Shown here: in pieces, positions 1 to 10,015 of the stretch
Numbering within the stretch: position 1 is the stretch's first letter
Layout of the letters: each line of letters begins with the position of its first letter
Source: Candidatus Ozemobacteraceae bacterium
Lineage (GTDB): Bacteria; Muiribacteriota; Ozemobacteria; Ozemobacterales; Ozemobacteraceae
Assembly: GCA_017998915.1 (NCBI GenBank)
Contig: JAGOCE010000136.1
Location: 1-10,015, forward strand
DNA length: 10,015 nt
Reading direction: 5' to 3'
Made by a program: the position numbers and the translations under genes
The notes under the pieces: model-generated
The model's input: only the letters and a program-made list of their open reading frames with translations
Database searches by the model: none
What the model was told of the DNA's origin: nothing

Positions 1-1
1 G

Positions 2-391
2 ACGTGCATCGACGAAACAGCCCGCCGGCGCGAGATCCAGGATCGGTACAACAGGGAACATGGCATCGAGCCAGCCTCGATCGTGAAGAAGCTGCCGAAG
101 ATCTTTCTCCCCGGCCAGGAAGGCGGCGAACAGGGGGCAGGCGGTAAAATCGACCAGGATCGCCTTGCCGAACTGGTCAGAGAGCTCCAGGCCGAGATGG
201 ACAAGGCCGCCCGCGAGCTTCAGTTCGAGCGCGCCGCGATGATCCGTGACGAGATCATCGCCCTCCAGGACGAGCATCTCGAAGCCGATGTCCTCATGGG
301 CCTCGGAAAAGCGCTCCGCTCCGGCCGCGACAGAAGCATGGCCAAGAAACGCAACTCCCGACGCTCCCGTTCCCCGCAGAAACCGGGCTGA
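2..391 (+). CDS. uvrB: Excinuclease ABC subunit B (UvrB), C-terminal fragment including the UVR domain; 5' end lies outside the window
   Basis: Frame-2 translation from position 2 reads TCIDETARRREIQDRYNREHGIEPASIVKK..., matching the conserved UvrB C-terminus (RRRE.Q..YN.EHGITP). It is followed by a UVR-domain-like helix, ELQAEMDKAARELQFERAAMIRDEIIALQ. Stop codon at 389-391, followed by a G/C hairpin. Confidence 0.85.
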   Translation, partial: TCIDETARRREIQDRYNREHGIEPASIVKKLPKIFLPGQEGGEQGAGGKIDQDRLAELVRELQAEMDKAARELQFERAAMIRDEIIALQDEHLEADVLMGLGKALRSGRDRSMAKKRNSRRSRSPQKPG

Positions 392-408
392 TATCCCCCC
401 GAACGAAC

Positions 409-437
409 GCCGGGGCGGGTTTGAAGCCCGCCCCGGC
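409..437. terminator. Perfect 11-bp G/C stem (GCCGGGGCGGG / CCCGCCCCGGC) with a 7-nt loop, between convergent uvrB (+) and the 454..1083 (-) gene. Likely a bidirectional intrinsic terminator without a U-tract, as is common in high-GC genomes
   Basis: Inverted repeat read directly: 409-419 gccggggcggg, loop tttgaag, 427-437 cccgccccggc. It sits 18 nt after the uvrB stop and 17 nt after the minus-strand gene stop. Confidence 0.55.
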
Positions 438-453
438 GCGTGGTGTCGGGAGA

Positions 454-1083
454 TCAGCGAGTCGGTTTGAGGGGTTTGTTGAACACGTCGAAGGGAATGT
501 CTTCCTTCAGCTCGGTTCGCAGGAACGTGAGAATGTCCATCGAGAGGGAACGCATCTTCTCGCTGTCGGTCCAAAACAGCTCGAACACGACACGTTCGGC
601 CTCTTTGCGCAGAGCAGCGAGGTTCGTCGAGTGGTGGTTGATCTTCAGGTTCTCGATGTGCGAGGCGATCTTGTAAAACTCGGCGCTGATCAGCTCGGGA
701 CCTTCGGGTGAATCATCGAATCCCTTCGGGAAGTTTGGATACTTCTCGCAAAATTCTATTTCAGCCGCTATATGGCGAAACAACGCGGGTTTGTCCTCGA
801 GACCCATCCGGACAGCCAGCAAGTGAGCCGCGACAACCCGGGGATCGTCGTTCTTCTTCGCATACTGGAGCGCGGCCACGAGGTCGTTGATGCCGGCATA
901 CGCCGAGTTGATCGAGCCGCAGGTATACAGCATCTTCTTGAGAACGACCTGTTTCGTGAGCTGGTACGGATCACGATGCAGTGCCGCAAACTCGGGGGTC
1001 ACCGCCCCGGCGGGCGCCTCAAATGACAATGCGAACACCATGACGAAGATTCCGACCATCGACGCAATCGCTCGTTTACCCAT
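454..1083 (-). CDS. Hypothetical secreted protein with an N-terminal signal peptide (MGKRAIASMVGIFVMVFALSFEAPAGA). The longest ORF extends to 1149
   Basis: Minus-strand ORF with high GC3 over most of its length. The textbook n/h/c signal-peptide arrangement begins at the internal Met (ATG at 1083-1081). The 22 codons upstream of that Met have GC3 of only about 50%, versus about 74% downstream, so 1083 is the favoured start. No recognisable family. Confidence 0.55.
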   Translation of the reverse strand: MGKRAIASMVGIFVMVFALSFEAPAGAVTPEFAALHRDPYQLTKQVVLKKMLYTCGSINSAYAGINDLVAALQYAKKNDDPRVVAAHLLAVRMGLEDKPALFRHIAAEIEFCEKYPNFPKGFDDSPEGPELISAEFYKIASHIENLKINHHSTNLAALRKEAERVVFELFWTDSEKMRSLSMDILTFLRTELKEDIPFDVFNKPLKPTR

Positions 1084-1161
1084 GTATGCATTGTACACAC
1101 CAATGCCCTGATTGGCAACCCGCCCACCAATCCGTCCAAAGACGCTCATGGTCGTGAGCGC

Positions 1162-2211
1162 CTATGGCAACGGCTTGTGGGGATTCGAGGCGTGGTCGAC
1201 GAGACGATCGAGTTCGGAACGGAGTTTTCGGAGTTCCTCGACGCGCCCGTTGAGAACGAGATACTGGAAATTCGGGTTTCGGAAGATTTCCATCTTCCGG
1301 AAATCCGGCTCGAGAAACCACCCTTCCGTCAGACGCTGGATCAACATGTTTGCAGGAGCAATCAGAAGAGCGACCGCAAAAGAAGGAAGAATCTGGGCCC
1401 ACCAGGAAGTTTCGTCGATATACTTCTGAAGATCGTTCTGGAGAATGTTTTCGACAGTTTTATACAGAGCCGCCGTTCCCAGGGTCAACAGCATGTAATA
1501 CACTCCGGTGCCGATGACCACGTCGATATCGATCAGCTTGAATCGCATCGTGGCGTACACCACGATGATCATGAACGCGAGAGTCGCCAACTCGACGATC
1601 GGGAACTCGAACACCCAGAAGATCTGATGCCTCAACAGCATGTCGTGAAGGGCGCACAGGCAGTAAAATGCTTCGCCGAGCAGGATGAACTCCACCCTGC
1701 GGCGCATCATCTCGTCCTCGTGCGTCAGGCGCGCTTTGACGAGCCGGTATGCAATCCGTATCAGGAGCACGCCCATGACGAAGGCATACGCCTTCATGAG
1801 CGGCCCGCCGATCGCCAGCGGGCCGTCGGGCGTCATTTCGAGTCCCGATCGGAAAATCATCTCGGTCGGCAATGCCGCGAGGAACACGGCGGTCGCAGCC
1901 CATGCGAGCCCCCGCGTCCTCTTGTTCGCGTATCTGCCTTCGAGAACGGCATCTGGAAACTCGGCCAGCAAGGGAATCAGCAGGATCGTGCCTATCCATC
2001 CGGCTCGCACGAACCAGATCGTCGGCAGAACAAAAAACAGCACCTGGAAGACGTTGTACAGCATCGATGCCGTCGCGATGCCCGCAATGACGCGGTTAAC
2101 CGGCTGGTGTCGAGCCCGCGCCAGGACGAACCAGGCCACGAGCCCCGAAATGCCGGCCGAGATCATCGACGTGGCCAAGCGCAGGGTGGGTGTCAGCACG
2201 ATATCTTCCAT
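1162..2211 (-). CDS. Polytopic inner-membrane protein with about 8-9 predicted TM helices and an approximately 70-aa charged, coiled-coil-like cytoplasmic tail. Function unknown, possibly a sensor or transporter-like protein
   Basis: ORF 1162..2307. The preferred start is Met33 (MEDIVLTPTL...), preceded by GGAGG 7 nt upstream (reverse complement of 2212-2225: ggaggaatggcATG). There are multiple hydrophobic segments of about 20 aa each. The tail reads ...RVEELRKLRSELDRLVDHASNPHKPLP. The + strand antisense ORF 1177..2370 translates to a low-complexity D/E/H/R-rich sequence and is rejected. Confidence 0.75.
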   Translation of the reverse strand: MEDIVLTPTLRLATSMISAGISGLVAWFVLARARHQPVNRVIAGIATASMLYNVFQVLFFVLPTIWFVRAGWIGTILLIPLLAEFPDAVLEGRYANKRTRGLAWAATAVFLAALPTEMIFRSGLEMTPDGPLAIGGPLMKAYAFVMGVLLIRIAYRLVKARLTHEDEMMRRRVEFILLGEAFYCLCALHDMLLRHQIFWVFEFPIVELATLAFMIIVVYATMRFKLIDIDVVIGTGVYYMLLTLGTAALYKTVENILQNDLQKYIDETSWWAQILPSFAVALLIAPANMLIQRLTEGWFLEPDFRKMEIFRNPNFQYLVLNGRVEELRKLRSELDRLVDHASNPHKPLP

Positions 2212-2295
2212 GCCATTCCTCCGGGCCCATCTAAGCACGAGTGGCTCTCTCCGTGCAACAAGACGGATACGGTTCGGCACCGATTTTTCCGGGGC

Positions 2296-2324
2296 TTGCC
2301 AAGGCATACGACATGTGGTATGTT
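2296..2324 (+). promoter_or_regulatory. Candidate sigma70-type promoter, TTGCCA-17 bp-TATGTT, with a second TTGACA hexamer at 2341-2346. Predicted transcription start near 2331
   Basis: Read directly: 2296-2301 ttgcca, 17-bp spacer, 2319-2324 tatgtt. It lies in an approximately 330-bp region of lower GC between divergent genes. Confidence 0.35.
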
Positions 2325-2565
2325 TCTAGTAGAGGCTGGTTTGACAATCATGTCCCTGCGCTGTCCGTGATGATGCAGGTTTAATTGAGCCGACACCTGT
2401 ATCTAGAGGGAATCTGTCTTCAACCCCCGCTGAGATCCCCTTACGAACAGGATCACTCCTGTTACGAAGACCTCATTGTGAGGCTGAGCAGACAACCGTT
2501 TACCGCGAGGTTAGGGTTCAATTGTCCTTCACACGGCAGAGGCGGGGGCCTACCCGCACCTCAAC

Positions 2566-2601
2566 GAAGCCGCCGGTAGTTTTCCGGCGGCTTCGTCTTT
2601 T
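2566..2601 (+). terminator. Rho-independent terminator on the + strand. Perfect 11-bp stem GAAGCCGCCGG / CCGGCGGCTTC, loop tagtttt, then GTCTTTT
   Basis: Inverted repeat 2566-2576 / 2584-2594 followed by the T-rich tract 2595-2601. On the opposite strand the hairpin is not followed by a T-run, so it is orientated for + strand transcripts, 40-90 nt upstream of the next + ORF. Confidence 0.6.
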
Positions 2602-2643
2602 CCCACGGTCCATGGCTCCCGAGGCGCGAGATACCGGTAATTT

Positions 2644-3747
2644 TTGTTCTGGGTGTTGCCTTTCGCCGTCCAGGTGGGTATATTTACCCCCATCATGAAG
2701 GCACGCCCTCTTCTCATCGCATCCGAAACGCTCAAAGCCGCCGATCTCATTGCTCCGCCCTTCGGACTCGAGCCCGAAGAGTTCATGCTGACCAGACTCG
2801 AGTCTCTGAATGTGATGGGGTTTGCGCGTTTCGCCGCCGTCGTGATTCATGAACCGCCTGCCGACCTGTTTCGCAGGTTGTCCCTCGGACTCCGCGACCG
2901 CCCTGATGCTGAAGCGCTCTGGTCACTTATTTCGCAGGCTCGATCCGTACCAGTTTACGTGCTGTCAGCCAAGATAGAGCGCCCCCCCACGGAACTTTCC
3001 GATCTCGGCATCGGTACAACCTTGCCCCAGCGACTTCGCGAACTGTGCGCCACGCCCGCAGCCTTCGCGCTTGACGGTTCCGGACCTTCGGTTTCCGCCG
3101 CTTCTTTGCTGACCGCCGATGATGTACGGGCCATGCATCTGAAGGGTGTGAAGACGCTCGACGAGAACACCCCGATGACCGACTGGGCCAGGGAAACGGC
3201 GACCGCGCTCGGCATCAGGCTCACGCCGGCAGCTTCCCGCCGCGTTCTGATTCCCGTCGAAGCCCGGGGCGTCAGGCACCTGGCGAGCTTCGGCGAGCTT
3301 TTGCACGGTTTCGCATCGTTCCCGCTCGCGCCGCTGTTCGTCGTTGCGGAGCCCCTCATGCCGGCGTTCAACGAGCTTTTCCCGTCGCTGCGCGGCAGGC
3401 TCGTCGCGCCAAGCATCCACTGGGAGAAACAGGGCGCCTTCACGGGTGAAATATCACTTGCTATGGCGCTCGATCTCGGGTGCGAGGGTGCGATCGTCCC
3501 CGATCTGCCGGCGTATGCTGAGCCGAAGCGATTCGCGCAGTTGTGCGCCGCCGCGGCTGGAAAGCAGTTTTCGCTTTATGTGCCCTCCCCCCTTGCCGCC
3601 CGGGATTGTTGTGCTATAATTGGCAACCGGATCTTCCGGCTCACGGATGGCCGGGGCCGCTCCGCATCGGAGCTGCCGAAAGACGGAGCCCTCATCATGA
3701 AGGGCTGCGAACTCGAGAAGATTGTCCAGGAAAGGAACAAGCCGTGA
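2644..3747 (+). CDS. Hypothetical protein whose C-terminal half carries a degenerate triosephosphate isomerase (TIM)-like segment. Possibly a decaying or pseudogenised TIM-family gene of the BMC locus. The start is uncertain (TTG 2644 or ATG 2695)
   Basis: Residues about 199-285 (nt 3238-3498) read RRVLIPVEARG...APLFVVAEPLMPAFNELFPSL...VAPSIHWEKQGAFTGEISLAMALDLGCEGAIV. This is co-linear with the TIM N-terminal region (KFFVGGNWKMNG...VVCAPP.AY...GAQN..K..GAFTGEIS..ML.D.G...V.LGHSERR). However, the catalytic N/K (GNWK) and H (GHSERR) positions are replaced (PVEA; PDLPAY) and the protein ends well short of a full barrel. GC3 is about 80% in the middle of the ORF but only about 65% at both ends, versus about 80% in neighbouring genes. 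A consensus extended -10 promoter lies inside the last 150 nt. The stop overlaps the pduL GTG start (GTGA). Confidence 0.4.
   Translation: MFWVLPFAVQVGIFTPIMKARPLLIASETLKAADLIAPPFGLEPEEFMLTRLESLNVMGFARFAAVVIHEPPADLFRRLSLGLRDRPDAEALWSLISQARSVPVYVLSAKIERPPTELSDLGIGTTLPQRLRELCATPAAFALDGSGPSVSAASLLTADDVRAMHLKGVKTLDENTPMTDWARETATALGIRLTPAASRRVLIPVEARGVRHLASFGELLHGFASFPLAPLFVVAEPLMPAFNELFPSLRGRLVAPSIHWEKQGAFTGEISLAMALDLGCEGAIVPDLPAYAEPKRFAQLCAAAAGKQFSLYVPSPLAARDCCAIIGNRIFRLTDGRGRSASELPKDGALIMKGCELEKIVQERNKP
3593..3620 (+). promoter_or_regulatory. Near-consensus sigma70 promoter, TTGCCG-16 bp-TGcTATAAT (extended -10). It probably drives the BMC operon from about 3627, giving an approximately 117-nt leader before pduL
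   Basis: Read directly: 3593-3598 ttgccg; 3612-3620 tgctataat (TGnTATAAT). The region is locally AT-enriched within otherwise 65% GC DNA. Confidence 0.5.
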
Positions 3748-4388
3748 TCGACGAAGCCAATGTCAAGACCATCGTAGCCGAAGTGCTCAAGCACATCGAT
3801 CTCCAGGAACGCATCCGCCCCGGAACCGTTCCAGCCGGCGTCAGCGGCCGCCACATCCACGTCTCCCAGGCCGATCTCGAAACCCTGTTCGGGGCCGGGT
3901 ATCAGCTCAAGGAAATGAAGAAGCTTTCCCAGCCCGGCCAGTTCGCGGCTGAAGAGTGCGTCATGCTCGTCGGCCGCAAGGGTGTCATCGAGAAGTGCCG
4001 CATCCTCGGGCCGGTCCGGCCGGCGACGCAGATCGAGATTTCCGGCACCGACAGCTTCACGCTCGGCGTGCCGATCGTCTATCGCGACTCGGGCGACACC
4101 AAGGGGACCCCCGGCGTCATCGTCGTCGGCCCAAAGGGCCACGTGGTATTGAAAGAAGGCATCATCGTCGCCAACCGCCACGTGCACCTCAGCACGAAGG
4201 AAGCCGAGAAGATGGGCCTGAAGGACATGGACCGGGTCACGGTCAAGACACAGGGTCCGCGCGCGATCGCGTTCCAGAACGTTCTGGTGCGCGTCAGCGA
4301 CAAGTTCGCCGCCGATTTCCACGTCGACAACGACGAGGGGAACGCCGCCGGCCTCAAAACGGGTGATATGGTCGAGATCGTCCGCTGA
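3744..4388 (+). CDS. pduL: PduL-type phosphotransacylase (phosphate acyltransferase, EutD/PduL family) with an N-terminal encapsulation-peptide-like amphipathic helix
   Basis: Two PduL repeat signatures: ...VSGRHIHVSQADLETLFG... and ...VANRHVHLSTKEAEKMGL.... The GTG start at 3744 is preceded by AGGAA (3731-3735) and overlaps the upstream TGA. The N-terminus, VIDEANVKTIVAEVLKHIDLQE, resembles BMC encapsulation peptides. Length of about 214 aa is typical for PduL. Confidence 0.88.
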   Translation: MIDEANVKTIVAEVLKHIDLQERIRPGTVPAGVSGRHIHVSQADLETLFGAGYQLKEMKKLSQPGQFAAEECVMLVGRKGVIEKCRILGPVRPATQIEISGTDSFTLGVPIVYRDSGDTKGTPGVIVVGPKGHVVLKEGIIVANRHVHLSTKEAEKMGLKDMDRVTVKTQGPRAIAFQNVLVRVSDKFAADFHVDNDEGNAAGLKTGDMVEIVR

Positions 4389-4466
4389 TCACGACCACCA
4401 CATAGGTTTTAGGTTTTTCGACACACGGTACACATTTCTGACAAGCCAAAATCTCAGGAGGACGTC

Positions 4467-4763
4467 ATGCAGGAAGCTCTGGGTATGATCGAAACCAAAG
4501 GTCTGACCGCTCTTATCGAAGCCACCGACGCGATGGTCAAAGCCGCCAACGTGAAGCTCGTCGGCTGGGAAAAAATCGGTTCCGGGTATGTGACCGCCTT
4601 CGTGCGCGGTGATGTCGCCGCCGTCAAAGCCGCCACCGACGCCGGTGCCGCCGCCGCCAAGAAGATCGGCGAGCTGATCTGCGTCCACGTGATTCCGCGG
4701 CCGCACGGCAACCTCGATGAGGTCATGCCGATCCGCGACAACACCCAGACCTCCAAGAAGTAA
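4467..4763 (+). CDS. BMC-H hexameric shell protein (Pfam00936; PduA/CcmK/EutM-like)
   Basis: The N-terminus, [33 protein letters not shown], is near-identical in pattern to PduA/EutM. AGGAGGA RBS at 4455-4461. 98 aa. Confidence 0.95.
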
Positions 4764-4783
4764 TCCGGGGAAATCGTCGAGTC

Positions 4784-5065
4784 ATGAATCTCGGTCGAGT
4801 CTGCGGAACCGTCGTCTGCACGCGAAAAGAAGAGCGGCTCAACGGCATGAAGTTTCTGATCGTCGAGGAACTGACGATCGAGCGCAAGCCGACGGGCCAC
4901 TTCGTCGTCGCCGTGGACGCGGTCAGCGCCGGAGCGGGCGAAACCGTACTGCTGGTCAGCGGCAGCTCGGCTCGCCTCACCGAGCGCACCCTGAACTGCC
5001 CGGTCGACGCAGCCGTCGCGGCCATCGTCGATTCGGTCGTGATGGACCACGAACGCACGACCTGA
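4784..5065 (+). CDS. BMC-P pentameric vertex protein (Pfam03319; EutN/PduN/CcmL-like)
   Basis: MNLGRVCGTVVCTRKEERLNGMKFLIVEEL... matches the EutN/PduN N-terminal pattern (M.IARVIGTVVST.K...L.G.KLL.V). 93 aa. Lies 20 bp downstream of the BMC-H gene. Confidence 0.9.
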   Translation: MNLGRVCGTVVCTRKEERLNGMKFLIVEELTIERKPTGHFVVAVDAVSAGAGETVLLVSGSSARLTERTLNCPVDAAVAAIVDSVVMDHERTT

Positions 5066-5092
5066 CCCCCGGCGGACTCCTTTGATCGATCT

Positions 5093-5129
5093 CCCGGCCC
5101 CGCGCATCGTTTTTCGCGCAGGGGCCGGG
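5093..5129 (+). other. Intercistronic G/C-rich stem-loop (CCGGCCCCGCGC / GCGCAGGGGCCGG) with a T-rich loop, between the BMC-P and aldehyde dehydrogenase genes. Possible partial terminator or RNA-processing element
   Basis: Imperfect inverted repeat read directly. No downstream U-tract. Confidence 0.3.
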
Positions 5130-5184
5130 GGTCGTGTGGTCCGCCGGCCATACAGACAGCAAGCCTCACGGCACGGGGGAACGA

Positions 5185-6603
5185 ATGTCCATTTCTCGTG
5201 ATGAGCTGGGCGTCATCGTCCAGGAAGTCCTCAGGAACCTGAAAGCATCCGGCACGGTCGCCACCGCCGTCACGCGGGCGGCGGAGCCTTCGGGCAAAGG
5301 CGTCTTTGAAAATATAGAAGACGCTATTAAGTCAGCCGTCGACGCCCAGAAGAAGCTCGTCGAGCTTCCGGTCGCCCTGCGCAAAAAGATGATCTCGAAC
5401 ATGCGCAGCCGCTGCCTCGCGAAGCTCGAGGAGCTCGCCCGCCTCGGCGTCGAGGACACCGGCTACGGCCGCGTCGATGACAAGCTCCAGAAAAACCGGC
5501 TCGCCATCACGAAGACACCCGGCATCGAAGATCTCCAGCCCGTGTCGTATTCGGGAGACGACGGTCTGACGCTCGTCGAACAGGCCCCTTACGGTGTCAT
5601 CGGGGCCATCACCCCCTCGACCAACCCGTCCGAGACGATCATCTGCAACTCGATCGGCATGATCGCGGCCGGCAACGCCGTCGTGTTCGGCCCCCACCCC
5701 GGCGCAGCGAAGATCAGCCGATTCACCGTCGAACTGCTGAACGAAGCCGTCATCGAGGCGGGCGGACCCGCCAATCTGATGACGATGGCCTCGAAGCCGA
5801 GCATCGAGAACGCGCAGATCCTGATGACCCACCCGTCGATCCGGCTGCTGGTCGTGACCGGCGGCCCCGCCGTGGTCGCCGCCGCCGCCAAGTGCGGCAA
5901 GAAATACATCGCCGCCGGTCCGGGCAACCCGCCCGCCGTCGTCGACGAGACGGCCGACCTGAAAAAAGCCGCGCGCGATATTATATCCGGCGCCACACTC
6001 GACAACAACGTGCTCTGCATCGCCGAGAAGGAAATCATCGTCGTCGAGTCGGTCGCCGAGGAGCTGAAGCGGCATCTGCGCAACAGCGGGGCCTACGAGG
6101 CGTCGGCGCGAGAGATCATCCAGCTCGAGAAGCTGGTGATCGACCCGAAGACAGGCGGCCCGAACCGCAAGTTCGTCGGCAAGAACGCCGGCTACATCCT
6201 CGAGCAGATCGGCGTGCGCGTCCCCGATGACATCCGCATGGTGTTGTGCGAAACGGGCCCCGACCACCCCTTCGTCGTCGAAGAGTTGTTGATGCCGGTC
6301 ATCCCGCTGGTGCGCGTGCGCGACGTGAACGCCGCCATCGATCTGGCCGTCAAGGTCGAGCACGGCAACAATCACACCGCCGTGATGCACAGCCGCAATA
6401 TCGACAACCTTCATCGCATGGCTGTTCGGTGCAACTGCTCGATCTTCGTGAAGAACGGCCCGAGCTATGCCGGCCTGGGAATGGGCGGCGAGGGCTATAC
6501 AACCTTCACGATCGCCTCCCCCACCGGCGAAGGCCTGACCAGCGCCCGCACCTTCACACGCCAGCGTCGCTGCGTCATCGTCGACAGCTTCCGAATCGTT
6601 TGA
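5185..6603 (+). CDS. CoA-acylating aldehyde dehydrogenase (PduP/EutE family) with an N-terminal encapsulation peptide
   Basis: The N-terminus, MSISRDELGVIVQEVLRNLKASG, is amphipathic and encapsulation-peptide-like, followed by a linker. The core motifs CNSIGMIAAGNAVVFGPHP and ...TLDNNVLCIAEKE (catalytic Cys) match EutE/PduP. RBS GGGGGAA before the ATG at 5185. ORF track start 5134 is in frame, but 5185 fits the RBS and the encapsulation-peptide pattern. Confidence 0.92.
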   Translation: MSISRDELGVIVQEVLRNLKASGTVATAVTRAAEPSGKGVFENIEDAIKSAVDAQKKLVELPVALRKKMISNMRSRCLAKLEELARLGVEDTGYGRVDDKLQKNRLAITKTPGIEDLQPVSYSGDDGLTLVEQAPYGVIGAITPSTNPSETIICNSIGMIAAGNAVVFGPHPGAAKISRFTVELLNEAVIEAGGPANLMTMASKPSIENAQILMTHPSIRLLVVTGGPAVVAAAAKCGKKYIAAGPGNPPAVVDETADLKKAARDIISGATLDNNVLCIAEKEIIVVESVAEELKRHLRNSGAYEASAREIIQLEKLVIDPKTGGPNRKFVGKNAGYILEQIGVRVPDDIRMVLCETGPDHPFVVEELLMPVIPLVRVRDVNAAIDLAVKVEHGNNHTAVMHSRNIDNLHRMAVRCNCSIFVKNGPSYAGLGMGGEGYTTFTIASPTGEGLTSARTFTRQRRCVIVDSFRIV

Positions 6604-6610
6604 GACAACA

Positions 6611-6762
6611 CACCACAGAGTCACAGAGACACAGAGGCCCTATTTCTCTCAATCCTGTAGCTCCGCGGTGAATATGATGAAAATCGCAAGATTTACAGCA
6701 GTTCGATCTTTGTATCCTTGTGGTGAATGATCTCTGTGTCTCTTTGCCTCTGTGGTAAACCA
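6611..6762. repeat. Long-range inverted repeat spanning the aldDH-pduS intergenic region: CCACAGAGTCACAGAGACACAGAG (6611-6634) pairs with CTCTGTGTCTCTTTGCCTCTGTGG (6738-6761). It encloses an AT-richer core with promoter-like TTTACA-15 bp-TGTATCCT
   Basis: 22 of 24 positions are complementary between the arms. The right arm contains the motif CTCTGTGTC-n7-CCTCTGTGGTAAA, which is repeated at 8859-8888. Confidence 0.5.
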
Positions 6763-6812
6763 GGGGAAACTCTCACGGACGATTATTGAATACTTCGAAA
6801 CGGATCAGGAAC

Positions 6813-8126
6813 ATGGGTGATATTGCAGTAGCGGAACTTGGGTTGGTGGGGTGCGGGGGCGCGGGATTTCCGACGCATGTGAAGCTTGCGGCGCAGAACG
6901 TCGATCACCTGATCGTGAACGCTGCCGAGTGCGAACCCCTCCTCCACAAGGACAAAGAGATCCTCAAGCACGCAACGGACGAGTTTTTCAAAGGCCTGAT
7001 CCGATCGATCGATCTCACGAGGGCAAAACAGGCGCATATCGCGATGAAGCGCAAATATGCCGATCTGCTTGAAACGCTCGAAAAGGCGATTCCCGACAAG
7101 CGGATATCGATGCTGCCCCTCGGCGACTTTTACCCGTCGGGCGATGAATACGAACTGGTATATGAAGCGAGCGGCCGGCTGATCCCGTTCGGCGGCATTC
7201 CGCTGCACGTCGGGTGCGTCGTCAGCAATGTCGAGACGCTGCTGAACCTCGGCCGCAACCGGCCGGTCACGACGAAGATCCTGAGCCTTGCGGGCGCGGT
7301 TCCCAACCCGATGACCGTCGAAGTGCCCGTCGGCATCACGGTGTTCGAGGCCCTTTCCCTTTCGGGCCTGAAATCGCTCGCCGGCCTGACGGTGATCGAC
7401 GGCGGCCCGATGATGGGGCGGCTCGTGCGCGATCCGCAGACCGATGTCGTCACGAAGACCACCGGCGGCCTGATTGCGCTTCCCAAAGATCATCCCCTGA
7501 TTCGACGGATGGTGACGCCAGAGGCCCACAACAGGCAGATCGCCCGTTCGGCCTGCGACCAGTGCACCGACTGTTCCGAGCTCTGCCCCCGTGCGCTTCT
7601 CGGGTATCCCATTCGGCCGCACAAAGCGATGAGGACAGCCCAGCTTGCCCCGTTCAACGACCAGAATTATTCGCGCGATTCAATCTTCTGCAGCGAGTGC
7701 GGACTCTGTTCGCTGTTTTCCTGCCCCGAAGGCCTGCCGCCGCGTGAGATGTGCCAGATGGCGAAGCGCCACCACCTGTCCCACGGTGTCAAGCCGACCG
7801 ACTGGAAGGACGCTCCGCAGGTTCACCCGATGCGAGGCCAGCGCCGCGTGGGAATCGAACGGCTGATCAAGCGTCTGGGCTTGCTCGATTACGACCACAA
7901 GGCTCCCTGGACAACCATCCAGACACGATTCGAGAGAGTCAGACTGCCGCTGAAGATGCATGTCGGGGTGCCGGCCGAGCCGGTCGTCCGCGTTGGCGAC
8001 ACCGTCAAGGTCGGCCAGTTGATCGGTGCCGTACCCGACAAGAAGCTCGGCGCGCCCGTGCATGCATCGATCAGCGGCCGCGTCACCAGCGTCGATTCCG
8101 GCGCCATCGTCATTTCCAGGGCATGA
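6813..8126 (+). CDS. PduS/RnfC-like Fe-S flavoprotein (NADH dehydrogenase 51-kDa-subunit-like domain plus two 4Fe-4S ferredoxin motifs). BMC-associated oxidoreductase
   Basis: GxGGAGFPTHVK motif (LVGCGGAGFPTHVKL). Two CxxCxxCxxxCP clusters (CDQCTDCSELCP; CSECGLCSLFSCP). AGGAA RBS before the ATG at 6813. The upstream TTG at 6786 is a less likely start. Confidence 0.88.
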   Translation: MGDIAVAELGLVGCGGAGFPTHVKLAAQNVDHLIVNAAECEPLLHKDKEILKHATDEFFKGLIRSIDLTRAKQAHIAMKRKYADLLETLEKAIPDKRISMLPLGDFYPSGDEYELVYEASGRLIPFGGIPLHVGCVVSNVETLLNLGRNRPVTTKILSLAGAVPNPMTVEVPVGITVFEALSLSGLKSLAGLTVIDGGPMMGRLVRDPQTDVVTKTTGGLIALPKDHPLIRRMVTPEAHNRQIARSACDQCTDCSELCPRALLGYPIRPHKAMRTAQLAPFNDQNYSRDSIFCSECGLCSLFSCPEGLPPREMCQMAKRHHLSHGVKPTDWKDAPQVHPMRGQRRVGIERLIKRLGLLDYDHKAPWTTIQTRFERVRLPLKMHVGVPAEPVVRVGDTVKVGQLIGAVPDKKLGAPVHASISGRVTSVDSGAIVISRA

Positions 8127-8159
8127 AGCAGCCCCTGAACCAGAACTGAGAGAACCGCC

Positions 8160-8717
8160 ATGAACATCTCGCAGAATGCCATCGGCCTCGTGGAACTGTC
8201 CAGTATCGCCATGGGCTACCAAACGACCGACGCCATGCTCAAGACCGCATCGGTCGAACTCGTCCTCTCACGCACCATCTGCCCGGGCAAGTTCATCGTC
8301 ATGGTCTGGGGCGATGTGGCGGCCGTCGAGGCGAGCGTCGCCGCAGGCGTTCGCGTCGGCCAGGGGTATCTCGTGAACGATCTCGTCATTCCCAACCTGC
8401 ATCCCCAGATCTACCCGGCGATGACGGCAACCAACCCGATTCCCGAGACGGATGCGCTGGGCGTCGTCGAGACGTTCGACGTCGTCTCGACGATCCTCGC
8501 GGCCGATGCATCGGCCAAGGCTGCCGACGTGCAGCTCGTCGAGATCCGCATTGCAATGGCGATCGGCGGCAAGGCGTTCTACACGATGACCGGCGACGTC
8601 GCCGCCGTCGAAGCCGCCGTGGCGTCAGGGCTGAACGTGCTCGAGGGCCGCGGCCAGGTCGTCTACAGCGTCGTCATCCCGCGCCCCCGCCCCGAACTCT
8701 TCCGCGAGTTCATTTGA
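8160..8717 (+). CDS. BMC-T tandem-domain shell protein (two Pfam00936 domains; PduT-like)
   Basis: Two BMC-domain repeats: IGLVELSSIAMGYQTTDAMLKTASVELV... and LGVVETFDVVSTILAADASAKAADVQLV.... 185 aa. Confidence 0.9.
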   Translation: MNISQNAIGLVELSSIAMGYQTTDAMLKTASVELVLSRTICPGKFIVMVWGDVAAVEASVAAGVRVGQGYLVNDLVIPNLHPQIYPAMTATNPIPETDALGVVETFDVVSTILAADASAKAADVQLVEIRIAMAIGGKAFYTMTGDVAAVEAAVASGLNVLEGRGQVVYSVVIPRPRPELFREFI

Positions 8718-8768
8718 GAGACACAACGGGAACAGCTTCAGCACAGAGAACACAAAGAGCACTGAGTT

Positions 8769-8888
8769 CTCACAGAGAACCGCTGTTTTCTGGTAATAGT
8801 CTTAATGCTGTATAATATAAACTTTACTTATACAAGCGGTTGTTTTTCTCTGTGAAACCTCTGTGTCCATTGTGTCCTCTGTGGTAAA
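8769..8888. repeat. Second copy of the intergenic element (BMC-T to rpiB spacer): CACAGAG repeats after the stop, an AT-rich core containing TGTATAAT, and the motif CTCTGTGTC-n10-CCTCTGTGGTAAA at 8859-8888
   Basis: The motif is shared with 6731-6759. Partial inverted complementarity exists between CACAGAGAACCGCT (8771-8784) and AGCGGTTGTTTTTCTCTGTG (8835-8854). Confidence 0.45.
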
Positions 8889-8926
8889 GTTTTTGGTGCT
8901 CGAAATTGCATTTGATGGAGATGGGT

Positions 8927-9391
8927 ATGCCGAAGATCGTGATTGGGGCTGATCATGGCGGGTTTCCGCTCAAGGAGGAGCTGAAGAAGCACCTGGCTAC
9001 GGCCGGCCACACGGTCGAGGACGTCGGCGCCTTTTCGACCGATCCGGTCGATTATCCCGATATCGCCTGGCTCGTGGCCAACGCGGTCGCGATGAATCCG
9101 CACACGCTCGGCATCGTCATCGACGGGGCGGGCATCGGCTCCTGCATGGCCGCGAACAAGGTCCCCGGCGTGCGGGCTGCCTGCTGCAACGATCTCTACA
9201 CCGCGCGCAACAGCCGCGAGCACAATCACGCGAACTTGCTCACCCTGGGCAGCATGGTGATCGGCCCCGGCTTGATGAAGCAGATCGTCGACCTCTGGAT
9301 CTCCACCCAGCCCGCTCCCGGCCGCCACGCCGCCCGCGTCGCCAAGATCACGCGCCTCGAGTCGCTGGGTGCACCGCCTCAGAAGGTATAA
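8927..9391 (+). CDS. rpiB: Sugar-phosphate isomerase of the RpiB/LacAB family (ribose-5-phosphate isomerase B-like)
   Basis: MPKIVIGADHGGFPLKEEL...GIVIDGAGIGSCMAANKVPGVRAACC...REHNHANLLTLGS...GRHAARV is co-linear with E. coli RpiB (KIAFGCDHVGF...GILICGTGVGISIAANKF.GIRA..C...RQHNDTNVLAFG...GGRHQQRV). GGAG RBS before the ATG at 8927. Confidence 0.88.
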   Translation: MPKIVIGADHGGFPLKEELKKHLATAGHTVEDVGAFSTDPVDYPDIAWLVANAVAMNPHTLGIVIDGAGIGSCMAANKVPGVRAACCNDLYTARNSREHNHANLLTLGSMVIGPGLMKQIVDLWISTQPAPGRHAARVAKITRLESLGAPPQKV

Positions 9392-9484
9392 CTCCTTCCA
9401 ATTTCCTTTTGTGAACAGACTTTCCAGGCGAATTTTCTACGTCTCGGGGAAGAGGTTGCATGAAATGTGGTATCATTTCTTGTG

Positions 9485-9742
9485 ATGCCTACCGTTCTCA
9501 TGATTTACGGCTGGAGATTCTTTTTCTACGCGAACGAGCGCAATGAGCCTATTCATATTCATTGCAAAAGCGGAGACAAGGAATGCAAATACTGGCTCGA
9601 CTGCGACGATTTTGACGCAATTGAAGCCTATTCGTACAATATGAGCCCTTCAGACAAGAGGCTCGTCAAGAAGCTGATTTTCGAATATTTCGAACTCATC
9701 GAGAATTCATGGAAAGAATTTCAAGAGAGAAAGTCTTTATGA
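9485..9742 (+). CDS. DUF4160-family small protein (about 85 aa) in a low-GC island. Function unknown
   Basis: MPTVLMIYGWRFFFYANERNEPIHIHCKSGDKECKYWL matches the DUF4160 hallmark (MPT...GyRFfFYsNE.nEP.HiHv...g.eaKfWL). Local GC is about 42% versus about 65% upstream. Its stop overlaps the next gene start (ATGA). Confidence 0.78.
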   Translation: MPTVLMIYGWRFFFYANERNEPIHIHCKSGDKECKYWLDCDDFDAIEAYSYNMSPSDKRLVKKLIFEYFELIENSWKEFQERKSL

Positions 9743-9999
9743 ATAAGAGTCACATAATCCAGGATGTTCGTTTCACGAACGGAACCATGCAGATCATGAT
9801 CGATGGAAAACCGTATGAGTTCAAGCTCAATGCTGTTTCTTCAAAATTATCTGAAGCCACCGTTGAGCAAAGAAATGCCTTTGAAGTTTCACCTTCGGGT
9901 TATGGCATCCACTGGCCGCTGGTCGATGAAGATCTTTCGATCGACGGGTTATTGAATATTTCCCATGCGCTTCCGGTAAAAAAGACGAAAGCGGCATGA
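9739..9999 (+). CDS. DUF2442-family small protein (about 86 aa), translationally coupled to the DUF4160 gene
   Basis: ...MIDGKPYEFKLNAVSSKL...GYGIHWPLVDEDLSIDGLL matches the DUF2442 C-terminal pattern (I.WP..DeDls.d.L). Its ATG at 9739 overlaps the upstream TGA, with a purine-rich RBS, GAGAGAAAG, before it. The alternative in-frame start at 9709 lies inside the upstream gene. Confidence 0.75.
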   Translation: MNKSHIIQDVRFTNGTMQIMIDGKPYEFKLNAVSSKLSEATVEQRNAFEVSPSGYGIHWPLVDEDLSIDGLLNISHALPVKKTKAA

Positions 10000-10015
10000 A
10001 TCAAGGAGCGAAATA
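9996..10015 (+). CDS. 5' end of a third small gene (MNQGAK...), translationally coupled by a second ATGA overlap. Runs off the window
   Basis: The ATG at 9996 overlaps the TGA at 9997-9999. Only 6 codons are visible. Confidence 0.3.

Follow-up and report, generated by a model that had tools for sequence, protein, structure and literature searches.

A degenerate triosephosphate isomerase relative heads a sugar-phosphate-utilization-type microcompartment operon of Candidatus Ozemobacteraceae and carries a predicted promoter within its coding sequence

The window examined here is a whole stretch of 10,015 nucleotides from a Candidatus Ozemobacteraceae bacterium (contig JAGOCE010000136.1, positions 1 to 10,015 of the forward strand), and between 2.7 and 9.4 kb its plus strand is a bacterial microcompartment (BMC) operon, as seen in a Pfam scan of the window's open reading frames (ORFs). 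The first gene of this operon encodes a 350-residue protein related to triosephosphate isomerase (TIM, or TPI) that, judged from its sequence, cannot be a TIM catalyst; it is catalytically dead. We regard it as almost certain that this gene, here called the pseudo-TIM gene, makes a functional protein of a kind other than TIM. A receiver-like domain, a EutQ-like module and the remnant of a TIM barrel are joined in it, and the 3' part of its coding sequence is predicted to contain a second promoter of the operon. On balance we lean toward a role for the protein as a non-catalytic organizer, or scaffold, between the shell and the cargo of a sugar-phosphate-utilization (SPU)-type microcompartment.

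Results

Loss of the TIM active site

The earlier note on this DNA, which was made from the sequence alone, had described TIM-like homology that included a GAFTGEIS region, and this is borne out by profile searches. The Pfam TIM family (PF00121) matches with an E-value of 3.3e-6 and 27.3 bits against a gathering score of 20.1, the match being confined to 36 residues around GAFTGEIS (residues 250-285 of the 367-residue ORF of that note, profile positions 54-89), and TIM structures in the PDB match the same stretch. A profile comparison with hhalign extends the similarity to residues 136-305 (numbered, as from here on, on the 350-residue protein), which align with TIM residues 1-137 and an N-terminal extension (probability 99.3%, E 2.3e-20).

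The same alignment upholds the losses that had been read from the letters by eye. The GNWKMN motif with Asn10 and Lys12 falls in a six-column gap just after PVEA, and the columns flanking this deleted loop are variable across the family. The GHSERR motif (His95/Glu97) is aligned to PDLPA, and the His95 column contains no His in 29 family members (D8/N5/S5/P4/A3/T2/E2). The barrel is indeed truncated, with nothing aligned to strands 6-8; for Glu165, the lid loop 6 and the phosphate-binding loops 7/8 (YGGS, GGASL) the protein has neither an aligned region nor such motifs. Homology thus ends at TIM residue 137, short of a complete (beta/alpha)8 barrel of about 250 residues, and scores from the NCBIfam TIM equivalog models reach only 12-18.5 bits where the cut-offs stand at 130.6-883. 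With no catalytic residue left and the phosphate-binding half missing, the suggestion in the earlier note that TIM activity might be supplied at this locus finds no support.

In TIMs the dimer interface is formed by loops 1-4, with loop 3 interdigitating, and phosphate is bound by loops 6-8. Residues G247, A248, T250, G251 and E252 of the GAFTGE loop 3 are invariant in the 29 members, and because this loop is kept and loops 6-8 are lost, the half of TIM that survives is the interface half.

A gene kept intact under selection

The ORF from which the note started (2644-3747, plus strand, 367 residues, TTG start) is present in the window. The TTG at 2644 was considered as the start codon and rejected, as the homologues begin at the equivalent of the ATG at 2695 and a conserved predicted promoter, P1, lies within the stretch 2644-2694. 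The start is most likely ATG 2695, which predicts a protein of 350 residues.

A word-indexed search returned 13 homologues of 40-99% identity, all about 350 residues long; several of them, from Candidatus Ozemobacteraceae, are named 'triose-phosphate isomerase'. In an exhaustive profile search the family comprised about 31 clusters (50% identity, E < 1e-30), with lengths of 345-382 residues in nearly every case, and a sharp gap set them apart from ordinary TIMs, which score E > 1e-9. The carrier genomes are Riflebacteria/Ozemobacteraceae, including Ca. Ozemobacter sibiricus, a restriction that is to be read as a lower bound on the range since the search patterns were narrow; the AT-rich, divergent members L076 and L077 are unassigned metagenome contigs.

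The reading frame is intact in all loci, and the gene heads its operon in all of the recovered loci, lying directly 5' of the phosphotransacylase (PTAC) gene, with the same shell and enzyme genes behind it. Ratios of nonsynonymous to synonymous divergence (dN/dS, Nei-Gojobori) among close orthologues are 0.14-0.18 for the whole gene, 0.07-0.19 for each of the three domains and 0.07-0.13 for the TIM-like part. Of the two possibilities that the note had offered, namely an inactive scaffold or regulatory paralogue on the one hand and a pseudogene on the other, the first is favored by a gene that is kept intact under selection, with its synteny, after the loss of its catalytic residues. A drop in GC content at third codon positions (GC3) at both ends of the ORF, also reported there, was recovered in part: GC3 is 0.77-0.90 in the middle of the ORF and lower over the first 135 codons (0.57-0.67) and at 3550-3600 (0.60-0.70), but the dip is modest and GC3 is 0.80 at the very end.

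The EutQ-like module and the receiver-like domain

The domain anatomy given here was taken from an AlphaFold2 (AF2) model (pLDDT 78; full-length pTM 0.49) together with profile comparisons, and it contains two parts that the earlier note did not mention. One is a EutQ-like module, preceded by a disordered linker, which aligns with residues 2-47 of E. coli EutQ (hhalign probability 94%, E 1.4e-7). In Salmonella the H1/H2 segment of EutQ (residues 9-41) binds the shell at EutL/EutM, and EutQ is needed for the coupling of cargo to the shell (PMC12487888). The alignment ends at EutQ residue 47, with no counterpart found of the H3/H4 cargo-binding helices and no C-terminal cupin in Pfam. The same module stands N-terminal to the TIM part of the catalytic BMC TIMs P0045, P0048, P0055 and P0163, and P0055 has a weak NCBIfam EutQ match.

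The other is the N-terminal domain, which has a (beta/alpha)5, CheY-like fold. Its hallmark is the motif K..LGIRD...W, with G65 and D68 invariant, and we know of no counterpart of the K..LGIRD..W motif. The domain gave no Response_reg (PF00072) match at E <= 0.1 in any of the 29 members and nothing in Pfam or NCBIfam, and its profile compared with PDB sequences returned nothing significant, the best receiver match having an E-value of 1.1. The phospho-acceptor column reads H16/D12/N1 in the 29 members, with His in the window protein, and the column equivalent to Lys109 is variable. As the fold is CheY-like but there is no profile match and neither the acceptor Asp nor Lys109 is conserved, the domain is receiver-like and not a receiver. 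A circular permutation in which this domain would be the second half of TIM ('LLIASETL' resembling CVGETL and 'VVIHEPP' resembling AYEPVW by eye) was also considered and was rejected, hhalign giving residues 1-122 a probability of 0.6% against a TIM alignment.

A predicted promoter within the coding sequence

The extended -10 promoter that had been proposed for the tail of the ORF (P2, Table 1) lies at exactly the position claimed for it, with 10 of 12 hexamer matches plus the TG in a consensus scan, and it is conserved across the family. TTG-N16-TGNTATAAT is matched at a single place in the window and was absent from all 200 shuffles, and the predicted transcription start, at about 3627, is 117 nt 5' of the PduL start codon.

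In nine orthologues whose proteins are 77-90% identical, synonymous differences make up a fraction of 0.01-0.09 over nt 3560-3650, down from about 0.35-0.5. In the block 3562-3645, dS is 0.05-0.15 against about 1 elsewhere, a roughly ten-fold fall, and invariant codons account for 18 of the 22 identical degenerate amino-acid columns in the block as compared to 35 of 174 outside it (Fisher p 1.6e-8). The conserved GAFTGE region keeps normal synonymous divergence, and the constraint on the block therefore acts on the DNA or RNA and not on the protein. At larger distances, TTGnnn-16 nt-TGnTATAAT stands at the same codons in L014, L002, L008, L015, L076 and L077, whose proteins are 25-44% identical and whose GC content is 41-65%; over 77 loci, each of the 17/17 family loci has a single coding-strand match to the pattern, at the same codons down to about 30% protein identity, and the 60 unrelated loci have one match between them.

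The site leaves its mark on the protein. At position 306 stands C or Y, with TGT or TAT as the codon wherever the DNA was read, and position 307 is confined to D, A, V and G, the full set of amino acids with GNT codons. Position 308 is Ile without exception, and its codon was ATA wherever the DNA was read although ATA makes up 6/128 of the operon's Ile codons; position 309 holds I or M. The amino-acid motif L-x7-[C/Y]-[A/D/V/G]-I-[I/M] thus appears to be dictated by P2, and we consider it likely, from consensus and conservation, that P2 is a working promoter.

A perfect palindrome, CCGGATCTTCCGG, was observed at 3631-3643, just 3' of the predicted P2 start; it is kept in most close orthologues (with one-base changes in L005 and L013) and not in L014 or L002, and it may serve as an operator or form a 5' stem-loop.

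A predicted promoter of the gene's own and the handover to PduL

In its pseudogene branch the earlier note had taken the tail promoter for an exapted remnant. This view fails, and P2 is not the only promoter either, since the pseudo-TIM gene has a conserved predicted promoter of its own, P1, at 2656-2684. Its -10 box stops 10 nt short of the ATG, and in 9 close orthologues both hexamers persist amid indel-rich surroundings. In all lineages, including the distant L014, L002, L008, L076 and L077, the -10 box lies 6-10 nt 5' of the ATG and there is no Shine-Dalgarno sequence, from which a leaderless or nearly leaderless mRNA is predicted; the P1 transcription start is likewise a prediction.

At the other end of the gene, the last 33 codons have a dN/dS of 0.3-1.3 with reduced dS, and their role as the PduL leader seems to outweigh their role as protein. 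The Shine-Dalgarno sequence of PduL is the conserved GGAAAGGAA at 3729-3737, within the pseudo-TIM 3' end, and the PduL GTG start at 3744 overlaps the pseudo-TIM TGA stop (GTGA). This overlap is kept in 7/9 close orthologues; in L001 and L009 the pseudo-TIM frame stops 7 nt earlier, at TAG. An encapsulation peptide in the C-terminal helix of the pseudo-TIM protein was not established, as constraint on the protein is weak here and the conserved 'ERNK/RKG' overlaps the PduL Shine-Dalgarno sequence.

Operon setting and origin

The operon runs from the pseudo-TIM ORF through PduL/PTAC, BMC-H (4467-4763), BMC-P (EutN), an aldehyde dehydrogenase (AldDH), a PduS/RnfC-like flavoprotein and a tandem BMC-T (8160-8717) to RpiB. 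Such a gene complement is that of SPU loci (PMC4207490, PMC8217296, PMC11585597), and the window has, by Pfam, the BMC-H, BMC-P and BMC-T shell genes together with AldDH, PTAC, PduS-like and RpiB genes in the order seen in the related locus L074. The SPU signature enzyme DERA (DeoC, pfam01791) was not found in the window or within <=10 kb of flank in L001, L002, L004 and L008. In orthologous loci a DeoB phosphopentomutase gene follows RpiB (NCBIfam equivalog, 509-530 bits; L001 14689-15840, L008 8190-9341). DERA encoded away from the locus has been reported for HO-type BMCs (PMC8217296), and the DERA of Ozemobacteraceae-type loci may simply be encoded elsewhere.

TPI genes (pfam00121) are known from SPU1/SPU4 loci (Axen 2014, PMC4207490; Dwyer 2024, PMC11585597). 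The earlier note had called for a comparison with orthologous loci, to see whether a full-length TIM occupies this position, and one was found. The profile search also returned proteins of 303-315 residues (P0045, P0048, P0055) in which the EutQ-like module is followed by a complete catalytic TIM, and a further such protein, P0163 (304 residues), has the EutQ-like module and intact NWK, GHSERR, YEPVWAIGTG and YGGS motifs. P0163 is the first gene of L074, an SPU locus with the order TIM-PTAC-H-P-AldDH-PduS-T-RpiB...DERA. Because P0163 shares the head position and the EutQ-like module, the window ORF is the positional counterpart of the SPU TPI.

The two proteins are alike in heading their operons directly 5' of PTAC, with the same downstream order, and in their EutQ-like N-terminal extension and homologous TIM strands 1-5. 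They differ in that the window protein is without the four motifs just named and, by homology, without strands 6-8, and has an extra 122-residue receiver-like domain; the TIM 3' end in L074 has no promoter-like site, and L074 encodes DERA where Ozemobacteraceae-type loci encode DeoB instead. We infer that the window protein descends from the encapsulated SPU TPI that heads related operons, having degenerated catalytically and gained the receiver-like domain.

Table 1. Features of the pseudo-TIM gene and its surroundings in the window
Feature	Residues	Position	Strand	Evidence and remarks
Predicted promoter P1 of the pseudo-TIM gene, TTGCCT-17-TATATT		2656..2684	+	Consensus scan; conservation
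Coding sequence of the 350-residue pseudo-TIM protein		2695..3747	+	Homologue starts; dN/dS 0.14-0.18
N-terminal (beta/alpha)5 domain	1-122	2695..3060	+	CheY-like fold; family motif K..LGIRD; phospho-acceptor position His52
EutQ-like module	136-178	3100..3228	+	hhalign; motif LTADDVR...TPMTDWARETA..LGI
Degenerate TIM half-barrel, strands 1-5	181-305	3235..3609	+	Loop 3 GAFTGE invariant; catalytic residues lost
Predicted promoter P2, TTGCCG-16-TGcTATAAT		3593..3620	+	Within codons P-L-A-A-R-D-C-C-A-I-I; consensus and conservation
C-terminal remainder	306-350	3610..3744	+	No TIM match (hhalign); doubles as 5' leader and Shine-Dalgarno of PduL
PduL/PTAC gene		3744..4388	+	Pfam PF06130 E 2e-74; NCBIfam

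Neighboring features

PduL begins with an encapsulation-peptide-like helix (MIDEANVKTIVAEVLKHI). In two of the retrieved contigs (L001 8781-9356, L006 4384-4959) PduL is called about 23 codons later, as a protein of 191 rather than 214 residues; the misannotation of start sites of BMC enzymes, the same problem as with these PduL calls, was noted by Dwyer et al. (PMC11585597). At the end of the operon, the window RpiB (8906-9391, plus strand) has 161 residues; its Pfam domain begins at residue 11, a stop codon lies closely 5' of the gene, and its orthologues have 150-154 residues. An N-terminal encapsulation peptide and a linker of about 75 residues have been reported for SPU RPIs (PMC11585597); since its domain begins at residue 11 with a stop just upstream, the window RpiB is without both.

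3' of RpiB, where orthologues carry DeoB, the window has a DUF4160/DUF2442 gene pair (9467-9742 and 9709-9999, plus strand; Pfam E 4e-15 and 2e-16; GC about 41%), which looks like a small mobile or toxin-antitoxin-like insertion; L001 also has a DUF2442 gene there.

Upstream, two divergently oriented genes on the minus strand, 454-1149 (231 residues) and 1162-2307 (381 residues, apparently a membrane protein), match no Pfam family and are syntenic in L001, L004, L005 and L007, between uvrB and the 6S/BMC locus. In L008 a 477-residue protein without a Pfam or NCBIfam match is encoded directly 5' of the pseudo-TIM gene on the same strand (201-1634, plus strand), and it may be an extra component of the locus.

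Immediately 5' of the operon lies a gene for a 6S (SsrS)-like RNA (2350-2552, plus strand), with a promoter-like site at 2296-2324 and a terminator hairpin at about 2565-2601. It matches the full Rfam model RF00013 with 37.1 bits (E 1e-4), short of the gathering score of 46.4, and the same match (36.6-38 bits) is seen at the same place in L002, L004 and L014. The sequence is highly conserved in 9 orthologues, with a compensatory change in the terminator stem, and RNAalifold gives a rod-like fold in which 12 pairs are maintained after changes on both sides. Promoters with an extended -10 and a weak -35 element, the class to which P2 would belong, are reported to be sensitive to 6S RNA in E. coli; a link between P2 and the 6S-like RNA is speculative.

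Discussion

We favor, with somewhat more confidence than doubt, the proposal that the pseudo-TIM protein is a non-catalytic shell-cargo organizer of an SPU-type microcompartment. In this scheme the EutQ-like module would dock the protein on the inner surface of the shell, and the TIM remnant, and likewise the receiver-like domain, would provide oligomerization or cargo contacts, so that the core (PduL and aldehyde dehydrogenase) would be tethered to the shell in the manner of EutQ, CcmN/CcmM and CsoS2. The scaffold gene would be transcribed from P1 as a leaderless mRNA, and P2 would allow the shell and enzyme genes to be expressed separately from the scaffold, probably more strongly; together, P1 with leaderless translation and P2 would break the link between the amount of scaffold and the amounts of shell and enzymes.

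Several observations weigh against this proposal. The shell-binding role rests on about 43 residues of EutQ homology, and the counterpart of EutQ H3/H4, which binds the encapsulation peptides of cargo, was not found. Loop 1, part of the classical TIM dimer interface, is deleted, and TIM-like dimerization is not assured; the full-length AF2 model, with its pTM of 0.49, does not fix the arrangement of the domains. The absence of DERA from the loci leaves room for an unrecognized enzymatic role. Finally, the promoter function is read from consensus and conservation, and the sigma-70 consensus may not fit these uncultured Riflebacteria/Ozemobacteraceae.

Alternatively, the protein might still be an enzyme with a new activity, such as a replacement for DERA or another sugar-phosphate step, carried out by a remodeled barrel with extra domains. 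No Ozemobacteraceae-type locus has DeoC/DERA, yet DeoB, RpiB, AldDH and PTAC are there, the pseudo-TIM protein is the operon's only large protein of unknown role, and K61, D68, D142, E167, T250, E252 and C263 are invariant or nearly so. The barrel, however, has no invariant Lys or His, and the conserved residues do not gather in one pocket but are spread over the receiver-like domain, the EutQ-like module and loop 3 of the TIM remnant. TIM homology ends at strand 5, the last 45 residues standing for about 110 of TIM, the conservation of C306 and I308 is accounted for by the promoter, and the missing DERA may be encoded elsewhere, as for HO-type BMCs (PMC8217296). We think such an enzyme unlikely.

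Equally doubtful to us is a regulator, in which the receiver-like domain would take a signal, by phosphorylation in the Asp-bearing members or from a protein partner, and control the assembly or expression of the microcompartment. The CheY-like fold, the Asp at the acceptor position in 12/29 members and the lack of any other regulator gene in the window (by ORF list and Pfam) are what this idea has to offer. Set against them, the acceptor is His in 16/29 members, including the window protein, and the Lys109 equivalent is not conserved; no member among the 29 matches the Response_reg profile, the protein has no DNA-binding or output domain, and pseudo-receivers are commonly interaction modules. 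The domain shows no detectable sequence relationship to the pseudo-receivers CpaE/TadZ N-domain, FleQ domain of FlrA, and FrzS.

A bolder form of the shell-cargo organizer, to which we give about as little weight, is that the dead TIM is a recruitment device. It would assemble with the housekeeping TIM into an asymmetric heterodimer, or with itself into a homo-oligomer, and would pin its partner to the shell through the EutQ-like module, with the expression of the organelle set by P2 in the adaptor's codons and the 6S-like RNA nearby hinting at growth-phase control. Either kind of oligomer is conceivable because the protein has kept the interface half with the invariant loop 3 and lost its own loop 1. 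If this were true, three degenerate domains would have been combined into a shell-cargo adaptor of a new class.

With regard to the block 3562-3645, synonymous constraint by itself does not name the element that is conserved, and in close orthologues the block includes the palindrome CCGGATCTTCCGG (3631-3643), so that the constraint might mark a structured RNA, a site of processing or the binding site of a regulator instead of a promoter. What is conserved across lineages, however, is precisely the TTG, the fixed 16-nt interval and TGnTATAAT, with the rest, including the palindrome, varying, and the rare ATA codon (6/128 Ile) is always kept; we consider a different cis element improbable. Least of all do we credit a TIM pseudogene in decay, with a 3' end that would be kept for nothing but the promoter of the operon, the other branch of the earlier note, for although the catalytic residues are gone, the barrel is truncated and the C-terminal 33 codons are relaxed (dN/dS 0.3-1.3), the frame is intact, length is constant over about 31 clusters, synteny is conserved, dN/dS is 0.07-0.19 in all three domains (0.14-0.18 overall) and the gene has its own conserved promoter and start, a selection analysis and a family size that together exclude such decay.

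The proposed organizer has partial parallels in known systems. With EutQ it shares the H1/H2 homology (residues 136-178 to EutQ 2-47), a multi-domain build and a gene within a BMC operon; no counterpart of H3/H4 or of the cupin acetate-kinase domain was found in it, and its module is internal, between the receiver-like domain and the TIM remnant. Pseudoenzymes have been discussed as organizers of BMCs, for instance the gamma-carbonic-anhydrase domain of CcmM, the defunct AldDH of GRM1 and possibly the SPU RPI (PMC11585597, PMC4207490). As in these cases, an enzyme fold has been kept in a BMC locus after catalytic loss, presumably for assembly; the fold (TIM) and the combination of domains differ, and none of them is reported to have a promoter in its coding sequence. 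In a limited search of the literature, neither a degenerate form of the TPI nor the EutQ-like nature of the TPI extension was described. Already known, then, are TPI genes in SPU loci and pseudoenzyme organizers in microcompartments, while what appears to be new is the degenerate architecture of three domains, the presence of a EutQ-type module on SPU TPIs, the leaderless start and a coding-embedded promoter that has shaped the protein over long evolutionary times.

P2 offers an unusually clean natural case of a coding-embedded promoter that constrains both codon choice and amino-acid identity over deep divergence, only GNT-encoded residues being found before the invariant ATA Ile, and such a promoter would be useful for benchmarks of gene finders and annotation and for engineering the stoichiometry of operons. 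SPU microcompartments are among the most widespread types, and the organization of their core is poorly understood. In published models the TPI encoded in the locus is an active enzyme that converts glyceraldehyde 3-phosphate (GAP) to dihydroxyacetone phosphate (DHAP) inside the shell. For the family described here the annotation 'triose-phosphate isomerase' is a functional overcall, and since the protein cannot be a TIM and the loci are also without DERA, pathway models for these loci need revision. The pseudo-TIM protein is instead a candidate shell-cargo linker for SPU-type organelles, which would extend the shell-binding H1/H2 module of EutQ to a new protein family and to a new type of microcompartment.

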